Sequence record: MK234886
Source of the DNA: Escherichia phage AnYang
Length of the DNA: 64,000 bases
Reading direction: 5' to 3' (one strand)
Below, piece by piece: positions 1,249 to 14,775 of the stretch. Positions within the stretch are counted from its first letter, which is position 1. The number at the start of each line of letters is the position of its first letter. Below the pieces are notes generated by a model. It was not told the origin of the DNA and searched no databases. It worked only from the letters and a program-made list of their open reading frames with translations. Position numbers and translations under genes: made by a program.

Positions 1249-1458
1249 TTAGCAAGACATAGAGGAGCTAAACCAGAAACCTTCACCTTCTGGAATACCG
1301 TAATCATCACGGGCCCATTCGTAATCATCATATTCCGGACTAGAAGCTGGAATATATTCTTCGCCACCAGCGTGGAAGTGTTGACCTGTTTCGTCAGCCA
1401 CGGACTGGCCTTTACGTACTAATTCACGGATTTGTTTTTCAATTTCATCAATAGTCAT
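1249..1458 (-). CDS. small acidic protein, paralog D (69 aa), ends GFWFSSSMSC
   Basis: ORF track; AAGGAAA RBS overlapping stop codon of paralog C. Confidence 0.6.
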   Translation of the reverse strand: MTIDEIEKQIRELVRKGQSVADETGQHFHAGGEEYIPASSPEYDDYEWARDDYGIPEGEGFWFSSSMSC

Positions 1459-1467
1459 TTTATTTCC

Positions 1468-1665
1468 TTAGCATTCGTAAGAGGAGGACACCCAAGAGGT
1501 ACCACTAATAGTAATACAACCGTTATAAAGCGTGATATGTCGTTCTAGGTCACGAACACCATCGATATAGATATCAGCTTCTTCGCGTTCTTCTTTACAA
1601 ATCTGGATAACGTTTTCAATAGCTGCGGCTGCAGTACGGATTGCACAATCTAGTTCACGAGACAT
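1468..1665 (-). CDS. small acidic protein, paralog C (65 aa), ends TSWVSSSYEC
   Basis: ORF track; AAGGAA RBS overlapping stop codon of paralog B. Confidence 0.6.
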   Translation of the reverse strand: MSRELDCAIRTAAAAIENVIQICKEEREEADIYIDGVRDLERHITLYNGCITISGTSWVSSSYEC

Positions 1666-1674
1666 AATAATTCC

Positions 1675-1956
1675 TTAACATTCAGAAGAAGAGGACACCC
1701 ATCCACCATTTTCTAGGCTGGTGGTGTAATCATGTTGGTTTACAATAGCGTACTGAGCTTCACCGTATTCTTCCCAGTGGGCAAGGTCGGCTTTCAGGGC
1801 GCCAGGAGAATAATAGTCACCGCCCATACCGCGAGCAGGGTATATATTAAAATGAGTCTCATATTTGTTAGCAATTTCCTCAGCACGACGAATAGCTTTA
1901 TGAATATCATTTACTGCTTCAGCCAGCTCTTTATTTTTACGGTAATCATTCATCAT
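1675..1956 (-). CDS. small acidic protein, paralog B (93 aa), ends GGWVSSSSEC
   Basis: ORF track; AAGGAAA RBS overlapping stop codon of paralog A; shares KYG/GDY core with paralog A. Confidence 0.6.
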   Translation of the reverse strand: MMNDYRKNKELAEAVNDIHKAIRRAEEIANKYETHFNIYPARGMGGDYYSPGALKADLAHWEEYGEAQYAIVNQHDYTTSLENGGWVSSSSEC

Positions 1957-2606: not shown

Positions 2607-3135
2607 TTTGAACCTCTTTAGCGTATTCGCGACATTCAGCAATAAAACGATTAAGCTTCCGTTGTTGTTTTCGAATCTCTGATGTATACTCATTAGCCAA
2701 AATAATAAGCTCATCTTTATCGTAATTTTTAATATCCGAATAACTCGGGCGGCGGTCGACCATACCAAAGTGGTCACCATTTTCTAACATCAAATAGCAT
2801 ACTAAATGGTAATCATCGTCAGCATCAACAAGCTGTTTACAATCACTTGGTTCATTTAAAGCGTATACTGAATAGCATAATCCAGCGAATTCCACTCGTT
2901 GAATACCTAGATTTAAGTCAATAATTTCTAAAGCTTCTGCAAAAGAAAGGTCCTCAGCTAAAGCAAAGATAAAAGGTAATTTGCTAGTGTATCCACGGCT
3001 ATTTGTTCGACTTAAGAAATCATTGGAATAACCTAAGTCTTGGCGAATTCTATAAAGAACTGAATTAGTTTCATGGGAAAGACCACTATGCTTAAACCAG
3101 TCAATATTTGATATCAGGTCGTCATATAAACTCAT
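2593..3135 (-). CDS. hypothetical protein (180 aa)
   Basis: ORF track; GGAGAGGAG RBS upstream of ATG. Confidence 0.5.
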   Translation of the reverse strand: MSLYDDLISNIDWFKHSGLSHETNSVLYRIRQDLGYSNDFLSRTNSRGYTSKLPFIFALAEDLSFAEALEIIDLNLGIQRVEFAGLCYSVYALNEPSDCKQLVDADDDYHLVCYLMLENGDHFGMVDRRPSYSDIKNYDKDELIILANEYTSEIRKQQRKLNRFIAECREYAKEVQNGAA

Positions 3136-3158
3136 AATATTCTCCTCTCCTCCAAATA

Positions 3159-3176
3159 GGGAGACCGAAGTCTCCC
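3159..3176 (-). terminator. stem-loop GGGAGAC-UUCG-GUCUCCC (minus strand)
   Basis: perfect 7-bp inverted repeat with UUCG tetraloop directly downstream of 3184-3777 gene; same hairpin at 4674-4689 and 41242-41259. Confidence 0.5.
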
Positions 3177-3183
3177 AGTAACA

Positions 3184-3777
3184 TTACTTAAGTGAATTAA
3201 TGTAGTCGTCGATATCGGCAGAAGTCGTATCCATTCCAACTTGTGGGCCTTTAAACGTTTCTACACGCAGCAGGGTATCTTCAATATCAATCTTAGTCAG
3301 TGCAGCGATTTCAACAACATCATCGGCAGTAGCAATACCAAGGGCAGCCATATTGCGAGTTTCACGGATGTACTCGAGCTTAACGGCCAGTTCCTGACGA
3401 GAGTCATCAAGTTCCTTGACCTTCAGTTTAATTTCATTACGCATTTCGATATAATCATCGGCCTTCTTACGAAGCTGAGTAGCTGTACGACGATAAAGGA
3501 GGCCAAGTTTAGCATGTACCTGGACATCAGCACCTTCGGCAATCAGTTTACGAATTTCACGTTCTTTAGAAGCGGCAAGCTGGTCTTTTTCATTAGCCAA
3601 CGCACGAATACGTTTTTCTTCATTCACAGACTTAACATGAGCGGTCTGGAGTTCAGTAATTTTATCAATCAGGGTAGAAGCAGCTTTGGTGTATTGGTCT
3701 TCGATTGACAGGTTCTGAGCCATTGCAGTACCCAGTTTAGAACGGATGAATTCAACGATTTTCTTTAAAGTGTTCAT
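3184..3777 (-). CDS. hypothetical coiled-coil protein (197 aa)
   Basis: ORF track; AAGGAAA RBS; heptad-rich charged sequence. Confidence 0.55.
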
Positions 3778-5371: not shown

Positions 5372-5926
5372 TCAGTTCTTATAGAATCGGAACGGGTTTA
5401 CGTGGAAGGCTAACATAGCCTTAGGGATTTTACGAGACAAAAGACTCTTAAGTTTCCAACCACAGTACACGCGAAGGTAAAAGGTAATACCTCCAACCTT
5501 AAGATAAGGAACCGAAGCAAAAACTCCCCATGCGTCATCATTCCACATCCATAGCCACCCGTGATGAGCTTTATCAGGGGAACCTGATTCCACATCAGGA
5601 TTACCGCGATAATGGAATTCTGAGCTACAATCACGTCCGAGTTTATGGTAAGCAAAGTTATAAGCTTTATTTCGCCATAGCCAAGCTACTCTCTGGAGAT
5701 AAACGCCAAAAGGTAGTTTTCTGATTTTAGCCCAACGTTTAATGTGACCTTTATCACCGTCAATTGGATTATCGTATGTCATCATCCAATCAAAGCCATA
5801 TGGTAATTTACCGGTCTTTTTATTGTGGAAAGGGACTACAAAAGGTGCAAGGATAACAGCCAGAACCATAGAGATAAAATCTAGAGGGACCAACAGAACC
5901 CAACTCAAATATTTTAAAAGTTTCAT
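5372..5926 (-). CDS. hypothetical membrane-anchored Trp-rich protein (184 aa), late-expressed
   Basis: N-terminal hydrophobic helix WVLLVPLDFISMVLAVILAPFVV; TATAAATA late promoter and AGGAAA RBS upstream. Confidence 0.55.
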   Translation of the reverse strand: MKLLKYLSWVLLVPLDFISMVLAVILAPFVVPFHNKKTGKLPYGFDWMMTYDNPIDGDKGHIKRWAKIRKLPFGVYLQRVAWLWRNKAYNFAYHKLGRDCSSEFHYRGNPDVESGSPDKAHHGWLWMWNDDAWGVFASVPYLKVGGITFYLRVYCGWKLKSLLSRKIPKAMLAFHVNPFRFYKN

Positions 5927-5952
5927 ATTATTTCCTAAGTTAGTTTACTACA

Positions 5953-5960
5953 TATTTATA
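5953..5960 (-). promoter_or_regulatory. T4-type late promoter TATAAATA (minus strand)
   Basis: exact TATAAATA about 27 nt upstream of ATG 5926. Confidence 0.55.
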
Positions 5961-5967
5961 CAAAAAA

Positions 5968-5989
5968 GGCCCGACCTTTCGGAAGGGCC
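5968..5989 (-). terminator. hairpin GGCCCUUCCGAAAGGUCGGGCC + U-run (minus strand)
   Basis: inverted repeat followed by TTTTTTG; third copy of same element at 47703-47725. Confidence 0.5.
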
Positions 5990-5995
5990 TTTAAC

Positions 5996-6225
5996 CTAGG
6001 GTAACCTTGTCGGGGTTCCACCTGCTAGGCAAGTGTTCGGTGCGCCGTTTCAGCTGTGATATAAGGGACTTTAAGAGGAACTCATGTACGCCTTAAAGTC
6101 GGGTCTTATTCAGGGAACTTCAGTCCGACGACTTACCGGTAGCGACCCGGTTTCTTGTTTGTTGCGCCGGTGAATGCTGGTAATCAGTCTTCATACGACG
6201 GCTTGACTATATAATAGTCTTCATT
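5996..6225 (-). ncRNA. candidate small stable RNA(s) adjacent to tRNA-Arg (positional analogue of T4 RNA C/D)
   Basis: 230 nt with no ORF over 25 codons and no RBS, between tRNA-Arg and a terminator; no canonical tRNA T-loop found. Confidence 0.25.
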
Positions 6226-6300
6226 TGGTATCCCGCCCTGGGATCGAACCAGGACCGCAAACTTAGAAGGATCGTATGCTATCCATTACACCAGCGGGAC
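6226..6300 (-). tRNA. tRNA-Arg (anticodon UCU), CCA encoded
   Basis: 75 nt cloverleaf read on minus strand: 7-bp acceptor stem, T-arm CCUGG-UUCGAUC-CCAGG, anticodon loop CUUCUAA. Confidence 0.85.
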
Positions 6301-6305
6301 GTAAT

Positions 6306-6971
6306 TCAAAATTTTATTTTACGGCCTTTATTCCAACCTTCAGGAATAATATCCGTTTTGTTAATACGTTTAGAAACTTTTTCTTCTAAAGAATGAATCC
6401 ACATTTTTCCATATCCGGAATTATTTTCACCTTGTTGGTGTTTATTTCTGGCGTGAGATTCTTTCATTTTATTTTTGGTTTCATCTGAATGGGTCTTACC
6501 CAAGAAAGATTTAGTATTTGAAAATTTCTCTCTATACTTAGGATTATCCCAAAGTTGTTTAAACCTTTCTGAACCCATTTTACGATATTTTTCTTTAAGG
6601 TCTGGGTCGTTCTCAAATCTGGTTTTAAAAGCGGCAACTCCTTTTAAGGAAGCTTCTTTCTTTTTATCTAAATATTCTTCAGTGTTTAAATGGTCCCAAC
6701 CACCTTCACCGCCTAATTTCAAATTATAAACATCGGGGCGCTTTAAAAACTCTTCAGTCACAATATTCTTTTCTGACTCAAACATAGAGATTTTATCGTC
6801 AAAGAACTCTAATATTTCTTTAGAGAAATTTTCTATACCGTATTTGGCCTGGGCCCTTTTCAAGAGTTTACCGGAACCAAAATATGCATCATTCAAATTT
6901 TCGGTTGAATGGGCTCCTATATAGATTTTATTATTAATTTTGTTTGTTATTTTATAAGTGTAATGGAACAT
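6306..6971 (-). CDS. segB: GIY-YIG homing endonuclease, SegB-like (221 aa)
   Basis: N-terminal YTYKITNKINNKIYIGA motif; sits between two tRNA genes as segB does in T4; AGGAGA RBS. Confidence 0.75.
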   Translation of the reverse strand: MFHYTYKITNKINNKIYIGAHSTENLNDAYFGSGKLLKRAQAKYGIENFSKEILEFFDDKISMFESEKNIVTEEFLKRPDVYNLKLGGEGGWDHLNTEEYLDKKKEASLKGVAAFKTRFENDPDLKEKYRKMGSERFKQLWDNPKYREKFSNTKSFLGKTHSDETKNKMKESHARNKHQQGENNSGYGKMWIHSLEEKVSKRINKTDIIPEGWNKGRKIKF

Positions 6972-7012
6972 AAATATCTCCTATTTCTAAGAGTATTTAT
7001 GTTCTCAAAATA

Positions 7013-7083
7013 TGGCCCTGGGTGGAATCGAACCACCATCCAGCGATTATGAGTCGCTCGCTTGACCGTCCAGCTACAGGGCC
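7013..7083 (-). tRNA. tRNA with CAU anticodon (Ile2/Met type), CCA not encoded
   Basis: cloverleaf on minus strand: acceptor GGCCCUG/CAGGGCC, anticodon stem-loop GCGA-CUCAUAA-UCGC, T-arm GGUGG-UUCGAUU-CCACC. Confidence 0.8.
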
Positions 7084-7088
7084 TTAAT

Positions 7089-7355
7089 TTAAATTACAAA
7101 TCCAGCAGGAGCATTATCATCTTTAGCCATGTGCTGAATTGTATGATAAGTCATTTCTTCAGGAGCAACCAGATAAGCCGCAGCGTTAACTAGTGGAATT
7201 ATTTTTGGTTTAGCGAATGTGCTATCGGCAATTGCCATAAAGGGCTCGCCGTCGGTCTCAACTTCACCAAATTGGCATTCATATGAAATAGAACAACGTT
7301 TGGTAGTTGTTGTCTTGGTTTCCGGGTCATAAAAAGCTAATTTTAATACTAACAT
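7089..7355 (-). CDS. hypothetical protein (88 aa; ORF track start 7361 is GTG)
   Basis: ATG 7355 preceded by GAGGTG RBS. Confidence 0.45.
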   Translation of the reverse strand: MLVLKLAFYDPETKTTTTKRCSISYECQFGEVETDGEPFMAIADSTFAKPKIIPLVNAAAYLVAPEEMTYHTIQHMAKDDNAPAGFVI

Positions 7356-7393
7356 AAACACCTCAAATAAAATTAAGTAAAGTAAGTTTGATT

Positions 7394-7439
7394 AATAGAC
7401 CTTGTCTATTATGAAAGGTTCTTTGAGGGAAGAACCTTT
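7394..7439. other. two adjacent hairpins (AATAGAC-ctt-GTCTATT and AAAGGTTC-N10-GAACCTTT)
   Basis: inverted repeats in the 130-nt spacer between two minus-strand genes. Confidence 0.35.
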
Positions 7440-7484
7440 GGTAATAGAGGGTATTAATGATAGAGTAATAATATCACATAATTC

Positions 7485-7769
7485 TTAAAGCATATTAATG
7501 TAATCAAGTTTAATAGAAGCAATCTTCAAAGGATTTTTAAAGATGTCATATTCGACCAATCCATTTTCAGTTGCGGTATAAAAAGTAAAGTTAACAGAAT
7601 TATAACGATGGCTGTTAACTTTGAGTTTAACATCGCTTGAACTACGGCCAATATTAACCTGTTGAACATCAAGCACAGCATCTTTGCCATAATTGCGAAT
7701 CAACAACTCAGCTGCAACCTGGTCTGAATTATAGCCATTCTCTGGATTAGTAACCTTAACGTATAGCAT
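7485..7769 (-). CDS. hypothetical protein (94 aa)
   Basis: ORF track; ATG immediately follows stop of upstream gene (TAAATG). Confidence 0.5.
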   Translation of the reverse strand: MLYVKVTNPENGYNSDQVAAELLIRNYGKDAVLDVQQVNIGRSSSDVKLKVNSHRYNSVNFTFYTATENGLVEYDIFKNPLKIASIKLDYINML

Positions 7770-12430: not shown

Positions 12431-13033
12431 ATGCTCTTCTCATTTTTCGATCCCATCGATTACGAATCAAAAACAGTCAAGCCAGATTCGGGCTCATTAA
12501 CAAATGCCGATGTACTGAGCGTGCCGATGACTGATATATTTAGAAATTATAAAGAATATTTTGATAAAGTGGCTAAAAACTATACACTAAAGACTTATTA
12601 TATCAACGGGGCCCCTCGTCCGGAAGAATTGGCCAATCAACTTTATGGTAACGTTCAGTTATACTGGGTTTTATTGATGTGTAACAATATCTATGACCCT
12701 TATTATGGTTGGATTACAGGTCAAGAAGCAGCCTACCAAGCGGCAATCCAAAGATATTCTACTGCAGGCGGTAATCAAGTTCTTTATCACGTTAATGAAA
12801 AGGGTGAGAAATTCTGGAATCTTGTTAATACTCCAGAAAACCCGTATACTTGGTATGATAAAGGCGATACAGAAAAACGTTATCCTCAATATGAGGGCCC
12901 TTTGGCTGCAGTAGATATTTATGAGGATGCTATTCGTAAAAATGAATATAAGCGCGAAATAAAGATTGTAGACCCTAATGATATTGAGTCCTTTATTTCT
13001 GCCCTTATTCGCGAAATGGAGAAAGCCCTCTAA
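12431..13033 (+). CDS. 53: gp53 baseplate wedge protein
   Basis: 200 aa; divergent from gene 4, directly upstream of gene 5. Confidence 0.7.
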   Translation: MLFSFFDPIDYESKTVKPDSGSLTNADVLSVPMTDIFRNYKEYFDKVAKNYTLKTYYINGAPRPEELANQLYGNVQLYWVLLMCNNIYDPYYGWITGQEAAYQAAIQRYSTAGGNQVLYHVNEKGEKFWNLVNTPENPYTWYDKGDTEKRYPQYEGPLAAVDIYEDAIRKNEYKREIKIVDPNDIESFISALIREMEKAL

Positions 13034-14775
13034 TGATTAACATGTCTGATAATGTAAGTTGGTTCGTCGGTGTAGTTGAAGACCGAATGGACCCGCTCAA
13101 ACAAGGCCGAGTACGCGTACGTGTATGGGGTATGCATCCCTATGAAAAAGTTCAAGGCCCTGTAAAAGGCCTTCGTACAGAAGATTTACCATGGATGTCG
13201 GTATTAATGCCTACATCTTCTGCCTCTGTTTCTGGTATACAAACCGCCATGACTGGTATGGTCCCGGGTACACAAGTTTATGGTCACTTTCTTGATAAGT
13301 GGAAATTAAACGGACTTGTCCTTGGTACATACGGTTCTGCTTCAAAACAAAAAGCGAATCCTAATGAAGGTTTTAGTGACCCAACAGGCCAATATCCACT
13401 TTATTTAGGTAACGATGCTGCTGCACTAAACCGAGGTGGTGAAGTTGGATATGATGCAACTTCTAACGTAATACAGGATGCAAACACCGATGTAGGTATT
13501 AATCCTGATGGTTTAGATTTAAGTCAAGTCAAGCCTGACGATAATCCTAATTTCACAATAGAAAACATGCTTCATCGTGATGAGGGTCTTCGTCTTAAAG
13601 TATATTGGGACACTGAAGGATATCCTACTATAGGTATAGGTCACCTTATTACGCCACAACCTATTAGAGATATGAACCAGATAAACAAAATATTATCTAA
13701 TCAGGTAGGACGGGAAGTTAAAGGTAACCCTGGTGCAATATCAATGGACGAGGCTTCTAAATTATTTCAAGAAGACCTTAAAAAAGTCCAAAACGATATA
13801 GGCAGGCATAGTGTTGTAGGTCCTGTTTACAATAAAGAAAACCGTTCAAGACAAATGGCTCTTGAAAACATGGCTTTCCAAATGGGATTAGGTGGATTGG
13901 CTAAATTCCGTGGAATGCTTAGTGCAATGTTAATAGGCGATTATAAAAAGGCATTTGAAGAAGCTCGTAATTCAGTGTGGTTTAACCAAACTAAAGGACG
14001 TGCATCAAGGGTATCAATGATTATCCTTACAGGTAATATGGAATCATACGGTATTATGGCCCCTAAAGAAAGGTCATTTAAAGGGCGTTCGTATAGAATG
14101 ATTCAAACCTTTGCGGCCCCTACAAATTCTGACCCGGCCGATCCGTGGACCCCAGAAGACACAAGGATTCTTTTTAAAGAACCTGATTCTAGTTATAAAG
14201 GTGAGTACCCATATGTCCAAACCATGCAAACTGAAGGTGGACACGTCCAAGAATTTGATAACACCCCAGGGCAAGAACGTTATCGTTTAATCCATCCAAC
14301 CGGTAGTTATGAAGAAGTTGCTCCTGATGGTCGCAAAACTTCTAAGACGGTAGCCGATGGGTATTATATGACCCAAGGCGATTCTAATACTTATGTTGGT
14401 GGTAATAATAAAGTCAACATAGGTGGTGATGAAACCTATTATAATATGGCAAACGTGCGCCGTCAAACTGATGGGTCTGAAAGCATCCATATTCGTGGTA
14501 ATGAAACCAAAACGGTAGAAGGTGACGGAACCCTTATTGTTAAAGGGAACGTTACGGTTATTGTTGAAGGCAATGCAGATATAACTGTTAAAGGTGATGC
14601 AAAAACACTAGTTGAAGGCAATCACGACTATACCGTAAATGGAAACGTTAAATGGTCTGTAAACGGAAACGTTGATATGACTGTTGCCGGTAATTGGTCT
14701 GAAACTATGTCAACCATGAGTTCTATCGCATCAGGTCAATATACTATTGATGGTTCGAGGATTGACATTGGCTAA
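13033..14775 (+). CDS. 5: gp5 baseplate central spike with tail lysozyme domain
   Basis: T4-lysozyme-like segment EGLRLKVYWDTEGYPTIGIGHL; C-terminal VxGxxxxx beta-helix repeats (IVKGNVTVIVEGNADITVKGDAKTLVEGN); 580 aa. Confidence 0.95.
   Translation: MINMSDNVSWFVGVVEDRMDPLKQGRVRVRVWGMHPYEKVQGPVKGLRTEDLPWMSVLMPTSSASVSGIQTAMTGMVPGTQVYGHFLDKWKLNGLVLGTYGSASKQKANPNEGFSDPTGQYPLYLGNDAAALNRGGEVGYDATSNVIQDANTDVGINPDGLDLSQVKPDDNPNFTIENMLHRDEGLRLKVYWDTEGYPTIGIGHLITPQPIRDMNQINKILSNQVGREVKGNPGAISMDEASKLFQEDLKKVQNDIGRHSVVGPVYNKENRSRQMALENMAFQMGLGGLAKFRGMLSAMLIGDYKKAFEEARNSVWFNQTKGRASRVSMIILTGNMESYGIMAPKERSFKGRSYRMIQTFAAPTNSDPADPWTPEDTRILFKEPDSSYKGEYPYVQTMQTEGGHVQEFDNTPGQERYRLIHPTGSYEEVAPDGRKTSKTVADGYYMTQGDSNTYVGGNNKVNIGGDETYYNMANVRRQTDGSESIHIRGNETKTVEGDGTLIVKGNVTVIVEGNADITVKGDAKTLVEGNHDYTVNGNVKWSVNGNVDMTVAGNWSETMSTMSSIASGQYTIDGSRIDIG

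Follow-up and report, generated by a model that had tools for sequence, protein, structure and literature searches.

Gene content of the locus

The locus consists of a CAU-anticodon tRNA (very probably tRNA-Ile2, as argued below), the homing endonuclease gene segB, tRNA-Arg(UCU), an rnaD-like RNA, and a terminator, all on the minus strand, and together they form the 3' module of the tRNA operon of T-even phages (Table 1). As determined with ARAGORN, the two tRNAs are the only ones in the window, by which we mean the whole 64-kb stretch of DNA that was analysed, and Rfam/Infernal returned the same two at its gathering score for tRNA of 29 bits. A permissive scan of positions 5900-7500 revealed no further tRNA or known RNA family, the sole extra signal being a sub-threshold antisense "Plastid-ycf2" artefact that overlaps a tRNA. 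The agreement of both programs upholds the initial annotation for the window, which had listed Arg(UCU) and a CAU tRNA only; in particular, no additional tRNA was found in 5990-7090, the range in which it had held that further tRNAs would refute it. Its count of eight tRNAs for T4 is borne out by the T4 annotation. Between the tRNAs lies one long ORF, segB. A promoter scan that covered sigma-70 promoters, as opposed to T4 middle or late ones, gave no convincing candidate on the minus strand close to the tRNAs. At the downstream end, the predicted terminator would close the tRNA/segB transcription unit.

Table 1. Features of the tRNA/segB locus, in the direction of transcription.
Feature	Position	Strand	Basis or detail
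CAU-anticodon tRNA	7013-7083	-	ARAGORN; Rfam/Infernal 62.6 bits
41-nt spacer, the segB 5' UTR	6972-7012	-	SD AGGAG at 6978-6982
RNA hairpin over segB SD and AUG	6964-7007	-	fold energy and shuffles
segB, free-standing GIY-YIG homing endonuclease gene	6306-6971	-	221 aa and stop codon
tRNA-Arg(UCU)	6226-6300	-	ARAGORN; Rfam/Infernal 48.8 bits
"G1" spacer, 70 nt	6156-6225	-	100% identical to KIT01/QL01
rnaD homologue (T4 stable RNA, species 2 RNA), JS98-type allele	6038-6155	-	alignments and T4 annotation
Intrinsic terminator, GC-rich hairpin and U-run	5962-5989	-	terminator scan; conserved across Dhakavirus alleles

The corresponding T4 locus reads tRNA-Ile, 41 nt, segB (666 nt), 5 nt, tRNA-Arg, rnaD, and rnaC, and the window shares the lengths, the spacers, and the slot. 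The resemblance includes a SegB of 221 aa, a 5' UTR that folds into a hairpin, an identical tRNA-Arg, the embedding in a tRNA precursor operon, and an rnaD homologue that follows. Unlike T4, the window belongs to a Dhakavirus genome with two instead of eight tRNAs, its CAU tRNA is a different allele with 64% identity to T4 tRNA-Ile, and it has the additional 70-nt G1 and lacks the rnaC body, which is deleted downstream of the rnaD homologue. The initial contrast with T4 overlooked this shared module, and the endonuclease does not split a minimal tRNA set, as the layout is the usual one of T4 without the six upstream tRNAs. In short, the locus is real but ordinary, a canonical T4 tRNA-Ile/segB/tRNA-Arg module with nothing new in its layout.

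G1 is absent from JS98 and T4, accompanies the T4-type tRNA-Arg in Dhakavirus alleles, and contains the near-palindrome GACTATTATATAGTC. The RNA downstream of G1 has no Rfam family and should be annotated as an rnaD homologue, as it is identical to T4 rnaD in a 36-nt 5' block and in the 3' block GAAACGGCGCACC, with a variable middle.

The region matches JS98-like T-even phages of the genus Dhakavirus with 93-95% identity. The full 2.9-kb query is covered by three records only (LQ5, IME540, and LHE83), the others being without the endonuclease segment. IME540 (170,237 bp), the closest complete relative with segB, carries the same two tRNAs genome-wide according to ARAGORN. There are three tRNAs in JS98, namely CAU, Asn(GUU), and Arg(UCU), and two in KIT01. 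Two or three tRNAs are thus the norm in Dhakavirus, with or without segB, and the small set is a trait of the genus rather than of this genome. The same pair of tRNAs occurs in KIT01-type phages, which lack segB; the gene is therefore not needed to account for a two-tRNA set in this genus, which is a point against the gene conversion reading given below. Only 3 of about 50 JS98-type records have segB at this site, compared with about 70 Tequatrovirus records that carry it.

The endonuclease gene and its leader

The 221-aa product reached 24.2 bits with Pfam GIY-YIG (PF01541; threshold 22.6) and 19.4 bits with NUMOD3, slightly under the threshold of 20.4, and the latter region aligns to T4 SegB without gaps. 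The product contains the motifs YTYKI...KIYIGAH and retains Y17 and G19, the catalytic residues that were mutated in T6 SegB (PMC13096335). The protein is identical to T4 SegB at 167 of 221 positions (76%, 0 gaps, E = 3e-124), to PP01 SegB at about 90% of its residues, and to the IME540 protein at 99.1%; at the nucleotide level, segB is 91% identical to PP01 and 77% identical to T4. The initial annotation had recognised a SegB-like endonuclease gene between the tRNAs, and the alignments make it the positional orthologue of T4 SegB, predicted to be intact; the gene name should accordingly be segB. With dN/dS values of 0.07-0.20, the gene is under purifying selection, and as Y17 and G19 are retained and the hairpin over SD and AUG is conserved as well, it is probably functionally intact.

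Neither the gene nor its biology is new. A near-identical copy has already been deposited with IME540 and is annotated there as a homing endonuclease, and the biochemistry, the homing, and the tRNA association of SegB were published in 2008 and 2026. The T4 enzyme has a 27-bp recognition site, conserved in the T-psi-C motif GGTTCRANTCC, and cleaves immediately 3' of CCAR at the ends of tRNA genes (PMC2330249). In crosses of T4 with T2L, 99.6% of the progeny inherit segB, and the T2L segment with tRNA-Met/Tyr/Asn/Arg is lost (PMC2330249). T6 counters Septu by a segmental amplification of tRNA-Tyr that its SegB drives, and segB-tRNA co-localisation is widespread across phages (PMC13096335, 2026). 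The window shares this tRNA co-localisation and Y17/G19 with the family described by Chihara et al. 2026 (PMC13096335), but shows no segmental amplification of the kind reported there. Site-specific double-strand cleavage and super-Mendelian inheritance in mixed infection have been demonstrated for the enzymes of T4 and T6 alone (PMC2330249, PMC13096335). As identity to the T4 enzyme is 76% and the central region is the part most diverged from T4, the site preference of the window SegB is assumed by analogy.

The gene is also internally mosaic. Its middle is 95-98% PP01-like, and its ends are about 80-90% identical to both PP01 and T4; compared with T4 SegB, the central third of the window protein is PP01-like and diverged. 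The PP01-type Tequatrovirus SegB further shares the A/TATTTTG junction with the window (the slash marks the junction), but PP01 differs in having a B-type tRNA-Arg downstream and a full upstream tRNA array. Synonymous divergence of segB from T4 is high (dS about 1.0), yet the 41-nt spacer and tRNA-Arg next to it are 100% identical to T4.

The spacer is likewise 100% identical to IME540 and 97.6% identical to PP01. The hairpin formed by it and the start of segB has a folding energy of -18.6 kcal/mol (z = -6.6), and none of 200 shuffled sequences folded as well. The same fold is found in T4 (-19.4) and PP01 (-21.4), and the base of the stem shows a change from A-U to G-C. For T4, Brok-Volchanskaya et al. 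proposed that this hairpin restrains SegB translation, and T4 segB is part of a tRNA precursor transcript (PMC2330249). In the window, two features probably keep SegB expression low, the embedding of the gene in a tRNA precursor transcript and translational occlusion by the conserved hairpin, which hides both SD and AUG.

Alleles and history of the locus

The mosaic structure was mapped by segment-wise BLAST and alignments, and alleles were compared at 19 loci, a part of all records. The upstream genes and the CAU tRNA are of the Dhakavirus/JS98 type (J-type), with the body of the CAU tRNA 100% identical to that of JS98. The tRNA-Arg, which starts 5 nt past the segB stop codon, is a T4-type gene that we call Arg-A; its sequence matches those of T4, KIT01, and QL01 with 100% identity and is unrelated to the tRNA-Arg(UCU) of JS98. 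The window pair is thus not the JS98 set minus Asn, a possibility that the different, T4-identical tRNA-Arg rules out. From 6155 downstream, the sequence is again JS98-like, as the rnaD-like allele is 98% identical to JS98 versus about 80% to KIT01/IME540. The first 36 nt of this segment (AGAAACCGGG...GGACTGA) are invariant in all alleles and form the right-hand mosaic boundary, and this block is a plausible crossover point.

The flanking genes (orf137-like and DUF7338) are common to the window and the segB-free JS98 and KIT01 loci, which differ from it in complementary ways. JS98 matches the window in the J-type CAU tRNA and the rnaD-like RNA, but has tRNA-Asn and a B-type tRNA-Arg in place of segB, Arg-A, and G1. 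KIT01 matches it in Arg-A and G1, but its T4-type CAU tRNA with encoded CCA directly adjoins Arg-A. The latter configuration is a clean empty site (...GGGTCA-CCA-ACTAC-tRNA-Arg-A-G1) that also occurs in QL01, PSD9, and ABTNLsp5. Where a J-type CAU tRNA is found without segB, it is followed by tRNA-Asn, and then by a B-type tRNA-Arg in JS98 and IME281, with no match to the Arg probe in C6; in the VR5-like L009, tRNA scars and then a B-type tRNA-Arg follow. Among the 19 alleles, J-type CAU and Arg-A were seen together only with segB between them.

The segB-filled alleles comprise the window and IME540 (J-type CAU), LQ5 (VR20-type), LHE83 and T4 (T4-type), and PP01 (RB51-type). Behind these four different CAU tRNAs, the junction is always at the discriminator A (...CA/TATTTTG...) and without CCA, and in the window the segB cassette starts directly after A73. 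Of seven segB-free alleles that were examined, five encode CCA at the same position, the exceptions being phage 005 and VR20. Three assignments were discarded in the course of this comparison. The LQ5 CAU tRNA is VR20-type and not T4-type, the gap ORF of L047, which has no Pfam match, is not supported as an HNH endonuclease, and the EcWhh-1 ORF in the segB slot is no SegB relative, having just a sub-threshold Phage_endo_I match.

The JS98 tRNA-Asn contains the 27-mer GGTTCGAATCCATGCATGTCCGCCAAA, which is identical to that of the T2-type (RB51) tRNA-Asn and has all five markers (G6, A16, G18, A26, and A27) of a preferred SegB site (PMC2330249). The window has no tRNA-Asn gene, and its CAU site has lost the CCAR end where it joins segB. 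At the level of sequence, the predicted SegB target is thus present in segB-free alleles and disrupted in the carrier.

Taken as a whole, the locus is best explained as a T-even 3' tRNA module that reached its two-tRNA state by SegB-driven gene conversion, a reading to which we assign a probability of roughly 0.78. By analogy with the T4 enzyme, SegB would recognise tRNA genes at their T-psi-C/acceptor 3' end (GGTTCRANTCC ... CCAR). During co-infection, it would cut segB-free relatives, and recombinational repair would copy segB together with its flanks into them. The mobile block consists of segB, Arg-A, and G1 (about 6156-7012). Its flanks are a JS98-type CAU tRNA and an rnaD-like segment that is likewise JS98-type, and between these flanks the sampled relatives without segB have tRNA-Asn and another tRNA-Arg. 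In the simplest history, a segB-positive phage carrying segB-Arg-A-G1 would have converted a JS98-type genome. The cut at tRNA-Asn would have been followed by resection and by templated repair over the stretch from the CAU tRNA to the conserved 5' block of rnaD, and the conversion would have replaced tRNA-Asn and the B-type tRNA-Arg, similar to the published outcome of the T4 x T2L crosses. As the flanks enclose tRNA-Asn elsewhere and this tRNA-Asn has a preferred site, it is most likely that the segB block overwrote tRNA-Asn and left two tRNAs. The sequences directly show the identities, the synteny, the mosaic map, the junctions, the tRNA identity elements, the codon counts, and the hairpin, from which we infer the enzymatic specificity of SegB, the homing event, and its direction. 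Apart from IME540, no genome was found that could have donated the exact block with J-type flanks, and as segB itself is mosaic too, the history probably had several steps. Homing into a JS98-type genome and later flank swapping by ordinary recombination could each account for the order of events.

In principle, segB could instead have entered a KIT01-like CAU - Arg-A - G1 locus by simple insertion, with the JS98-type flanks acquired later by ordinary recombination and no tRNA-Asn ever removed. The exact empty site in KIT01, QL01, PSD9, and ABTNLsp5, the LHE83 allele, which is the empty-site allele plus segB, and the constant association of Arg-A and G1 with segB in Dhakavirus all speak in its favour. 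We nevertheless regard it as unlikely. Both discrete flanking alleles are J-type, and two more exchanges would thus be needed exactly at the edges of the cassette. Furthermore, a segB-free allele with J-type CAU and Arg-A was not seen among the 19 loci, and with a perfect preferred SegB site in the JS98-type tRNA-Asn, conversion of such genomes is to be expected. Gene conversion therefore remains the preferred reading. The proposal that the endonuclease is mobile and linked to tRNA-cluster turnover is supported by the junctions, the empty sites, the mosaic map, and the published crosses (PMC2330249), and the comparison across related phages that had been suggested along with it showed the mobile segB, Arg-A, and G1 block in the 19 alleles.

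Codon demand, tRNA identity, and significance

Every allele examined contains a tRNA with the anticodon CAU and one for Arg(UCU), while the content between them turns over. As their retention had been attributed to codon-usage pressure, we compared codon counts from one mechanical ORF caller for the window (53 ORFs, 18,301 codons) with a host baseline that consists of the mechanically called ORFs of a single 50-kb E. coli MG1655 segment. AGA is the most enriched codon in this comparison (6.9 in the phage versus 1.7 in the host per 1000 codons, 3.8-fold), and AUA is the fourth most enriched (10.6 versus 3.3, 3.2-fold), whereas AUG is not enriched (25.8 versus 27.7). AGA and AUA are slightly more frequent on the plus strand, which carries mostly late structural genes. 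The enrichment of ACT, CCT, and TCT is comparable, and these codons are decoded by abundant host tRNAs. The tRNAs kept in every allele would decode two host-rare codons, AGA and AUA, that are about 3-4 times commoner in the phage. This enrichment and the constancy of the tRNA pair fit and support the codon-supply idea, and both tRNAs may confer a translational benefit. Of the original codon-usage argument, the strong enrichment of AGA and AUA relative to the host sample stands, but for the presence of exactly two tRNAs in this lineage, a segB block that would have replaced tRNA-Asn and exchanged the tRNA-Arg gene is a better explanation than a set trimmed by selection alone.

The tRNAs and segB could also be kept mainly for counter-defence, in that they replace host tRNAs cleaved or depleted during infection, with SegB amplifying adjacent tRNA or anti-defence genes. 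Precedents exist, as SegB-dependent tRNA-Tyr amplification rescues T6 from Septu and amplification in trans rescues it from OLD and ToxIN, and as segB-tRNA co-localisation is general across phages (PMC13096335); the purifying selection on segB would fit as well. However, tandem amplification is absent from the window, no defence system is known to target tRNA-Arg(UCU) or tRNA-Ile2, and the pattern of codon enrichment fits compensation of supply, which makes counter-defence an improbable main cause. Such a role would be compatible with the gene conversion history.

The AUA assignment depends on the identity of the CAU tRNA, which the initial annotation had left as Ile2 or Met type. The tRNA has C4-G69, C5-G68, C29-G41, U12-A23, and A73, whereas U4-A69 and A5-U68, the Met elements, are absent. 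Of the published identity sets for Ile and Met tRNAs (PMC9976931, Table 1), the IleRS set was checked at A73, C4-G69, U12-A23, C29-G41, A35, U36, A37, and A38, and all of these positions agree. C4-G69 and C5-G68 are required by E. coli TilS (PMC1635315). The anticodon stem-loop 28-42 is identical to that of E. coli CAU tRNA-Ile, overall identity is 77% to this tRNA versus 68% to metT, the best E. coli matches are all annotated as tRNA-Ile, and the RB51 record annotates a 92%-identical gene as tRNA-Ile. CAU, C4-G69, C5-G68, C29-G41, A73, and the stem-loop 28-42 are shared with E. coli tRNA-Ile2 (ileX/ileY), and the 5' strand of the acceptor stem, GGCCCUG, with T4 tRNA-Ile. Differences from these E. 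coli and T4 tRNAs are A27-U43 instead of G27-U43, a short D-loop of 7 nt, and the missing CCA. By these elements, the tRNA is very probably a lysidine-type tRNA-Ile2 and AUA decoder, in which C34 would be modified to lysidine.

An initiator tRNA-Met is ruled out. An initiator is expected to be mismatched at 1:72 and to have an anticodon stem with three G-C pairs, whereas G1-C72 is paired here and the anticodon stem (A-U, G-C, C-G, G-C, A-U) is not GC-rich. An elongator tRNA-Met, which would turn the retained set into AGA and AUG decoders, is very unlikely, as the CAT anticodon, the ARAGORN call, the label in many GenBank records, the naming of the T2L homologue as tRNA-Met (PMC2330249, 2008), and the acceptance of unmodified CAU tRNA with A73 as a MetRS substrate (PMC1635315) are outweighed by the presence of the TilS and IleRS determinants, the absence of both Met pairs, the similarity to the E. 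coli and RB51 tRNA-Ile genes, and the enrichment of AUA but not AUG. The annotation as tRNA-Met should therefore be changed to tRNA-Ile2(CAU).

Beyond correct annotation, the significance of the locus is small. A modest added value lies in the natural allelic series at one site in one genus, which comprises the JS98-type allele with a preferred site in tRNA-Asn, the empty KIT01-type allele, four segB-filled alleles behind three CAU tRNAs, and an allele with an unrelated ORF, and which could serve to measure how a homing endonuclease remodels a tRNA cluster. A more far-reaching reading, which we consider possible but put forward only tentatively, is that SegB homing prunes and shuffles phage tRNA repertoires. 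It would cost JS98-type phages their tRNA-Asn and swap tRNA-Arg(UCU) for an unrelated gene, and the invariant discriminator junction at four unrelated tRNA-Ile2 genes would reflect repeated independent insertions targeted to CCA ends rather than inherited linkage. If this is true, the tRNAs that a T-even phage carries besides its AGA and AUA decoders would be determined by a selfish endonuclease rather than by codon demand. The locus itself illustrates that the decoders of AGA and AUA are the tRNAs that are kept when all else turns over.

Sequences downstream of tRNA-Arg

The spacer that we term G1 (see table) is 100% identical to that of the KIT01/QL01-type Dhakaviruses, is missing from T4 and JS98, and contains the near-palindrome GACTATTATATAGTC. 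Within the genus, G1 invariably accompanies the T4-type tRNA-Arg. The neighboring homologue of the T4 stable RNA rnaD is followed by a truncated rnaC region: the rnaC body (about 146 nt, including a tRNA-like T-psi-C arm) is present in T4 and KIT01, whereas it is deleted in the window, in JS98, and in IME540, the closest complete relative with segB, leaving only the 3' tail. RNAs of the rnaD/rnaC type are covered by no Rfam family. The conserved DUF7338 gene next to the operon has homologues that adjoin the tRNA clusters of many unrelated large phages, some of which carry 15-19 tRNAs.

Features of the tRNA region and of compared loci (coordinates refer to the window or to the locus named)
Feature	Coordinates	Locus	Remarks
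DUF7338 gene, conserved	5372-5926 (-)	window	strong match, E = 4.7e-64; immediately downstream of tRNA operon
rnaD (species 2) homologue	6038-6155 (-), with 5990-6037	window	36-nt 5' block and 3' block identical to T4
G1 spacer, 70 nt	6156-6225 (-)	window	between tRNA-Arg and rnaD-like RNA
Gap of 134 nt	3058-3191	L009 (IMG/VR contig, 170,473 bp, labelled VR5-like)	from J-type (JS98) CAU tRNA to B-type tRNA-Arg
Unrelated 219-aa ORF	1268-1924 (-)	L077 (Escherichia phage EcWhh-1)	between T4-type CAU tRNA and tRNA-Arg-A
tRNA locus	1706-2579	L047 (IMG/VR, 158-kb phage)	CAU tRNA, tRNA-Gln, 639-nt gap, tRNA-Arg
Second SegB-like gene, 609 nt	836-1444	L066 (phage RB51)	annotated homing endonuclease; between tRNA-Gly and tRNA-Ser

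Other contents of the segB slot

Two alleles without segB carry possible traces of breakage or loss. The gap in L009 holds two truncated tRNA 3' halves, namely the T-psi-C motifs GGTTCGATTCC and GGTTCGAGTCC with the remainder of each tRNA absent, and these look like scars left when tRNA 3' ends were broken and repaired in the past. In phage vB_EcoM_005 (locus L008, approximately 2598-2605), the T4-type CAU tRNA has no encoded CCA, because it is followed by TTAACTAC in place of CCAACTAC. Speculatively, this sequence resembles the remnant of a near-precise loss of the segB cassette (…CA/T…TAA/ATTAC).

The slot can also hold an unrelated ORF. The EcWhh-1 ORF showed no similarity to SegB, and its only match, Phage_endo_I, scored below the threshold (24.3 vs 29.1 bits). 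Its product may be a further mobile nuclease, distinct from SegB, that exploits the slot of segB. In L047, the CAU tRNA shares 97% identity with the CAU tRNA-Ile of E. coli (ileX type); the gap between tRNA-Gln and tRNA-Arg contains an ORF spanning 147 aa or more, for which Pfam gave no match.

Homing endonuclease genes at other sites

The second SegB-like gene of RB51 lies at a different position of the tRNA cluster, where T4 has tRNA-Pro, and several slots of T-even tRNA arrays therefore hold SegB relatives. Outside the tRNA region, the annotation of IME540 (region 121231-124207) places a 'Seg-like homing endonuclease' after the gene for the baseplate wedge and before that for the baseplate hub/tail lysozyme, or in the reverse order; the corresponding two ORFs of the window (12431-13033 and 13033-14775, within 12431-14775 on the plus strand) are directly adjacent with nothing between them, a further presence/absence polymorphism of a homing endonuclease gene.
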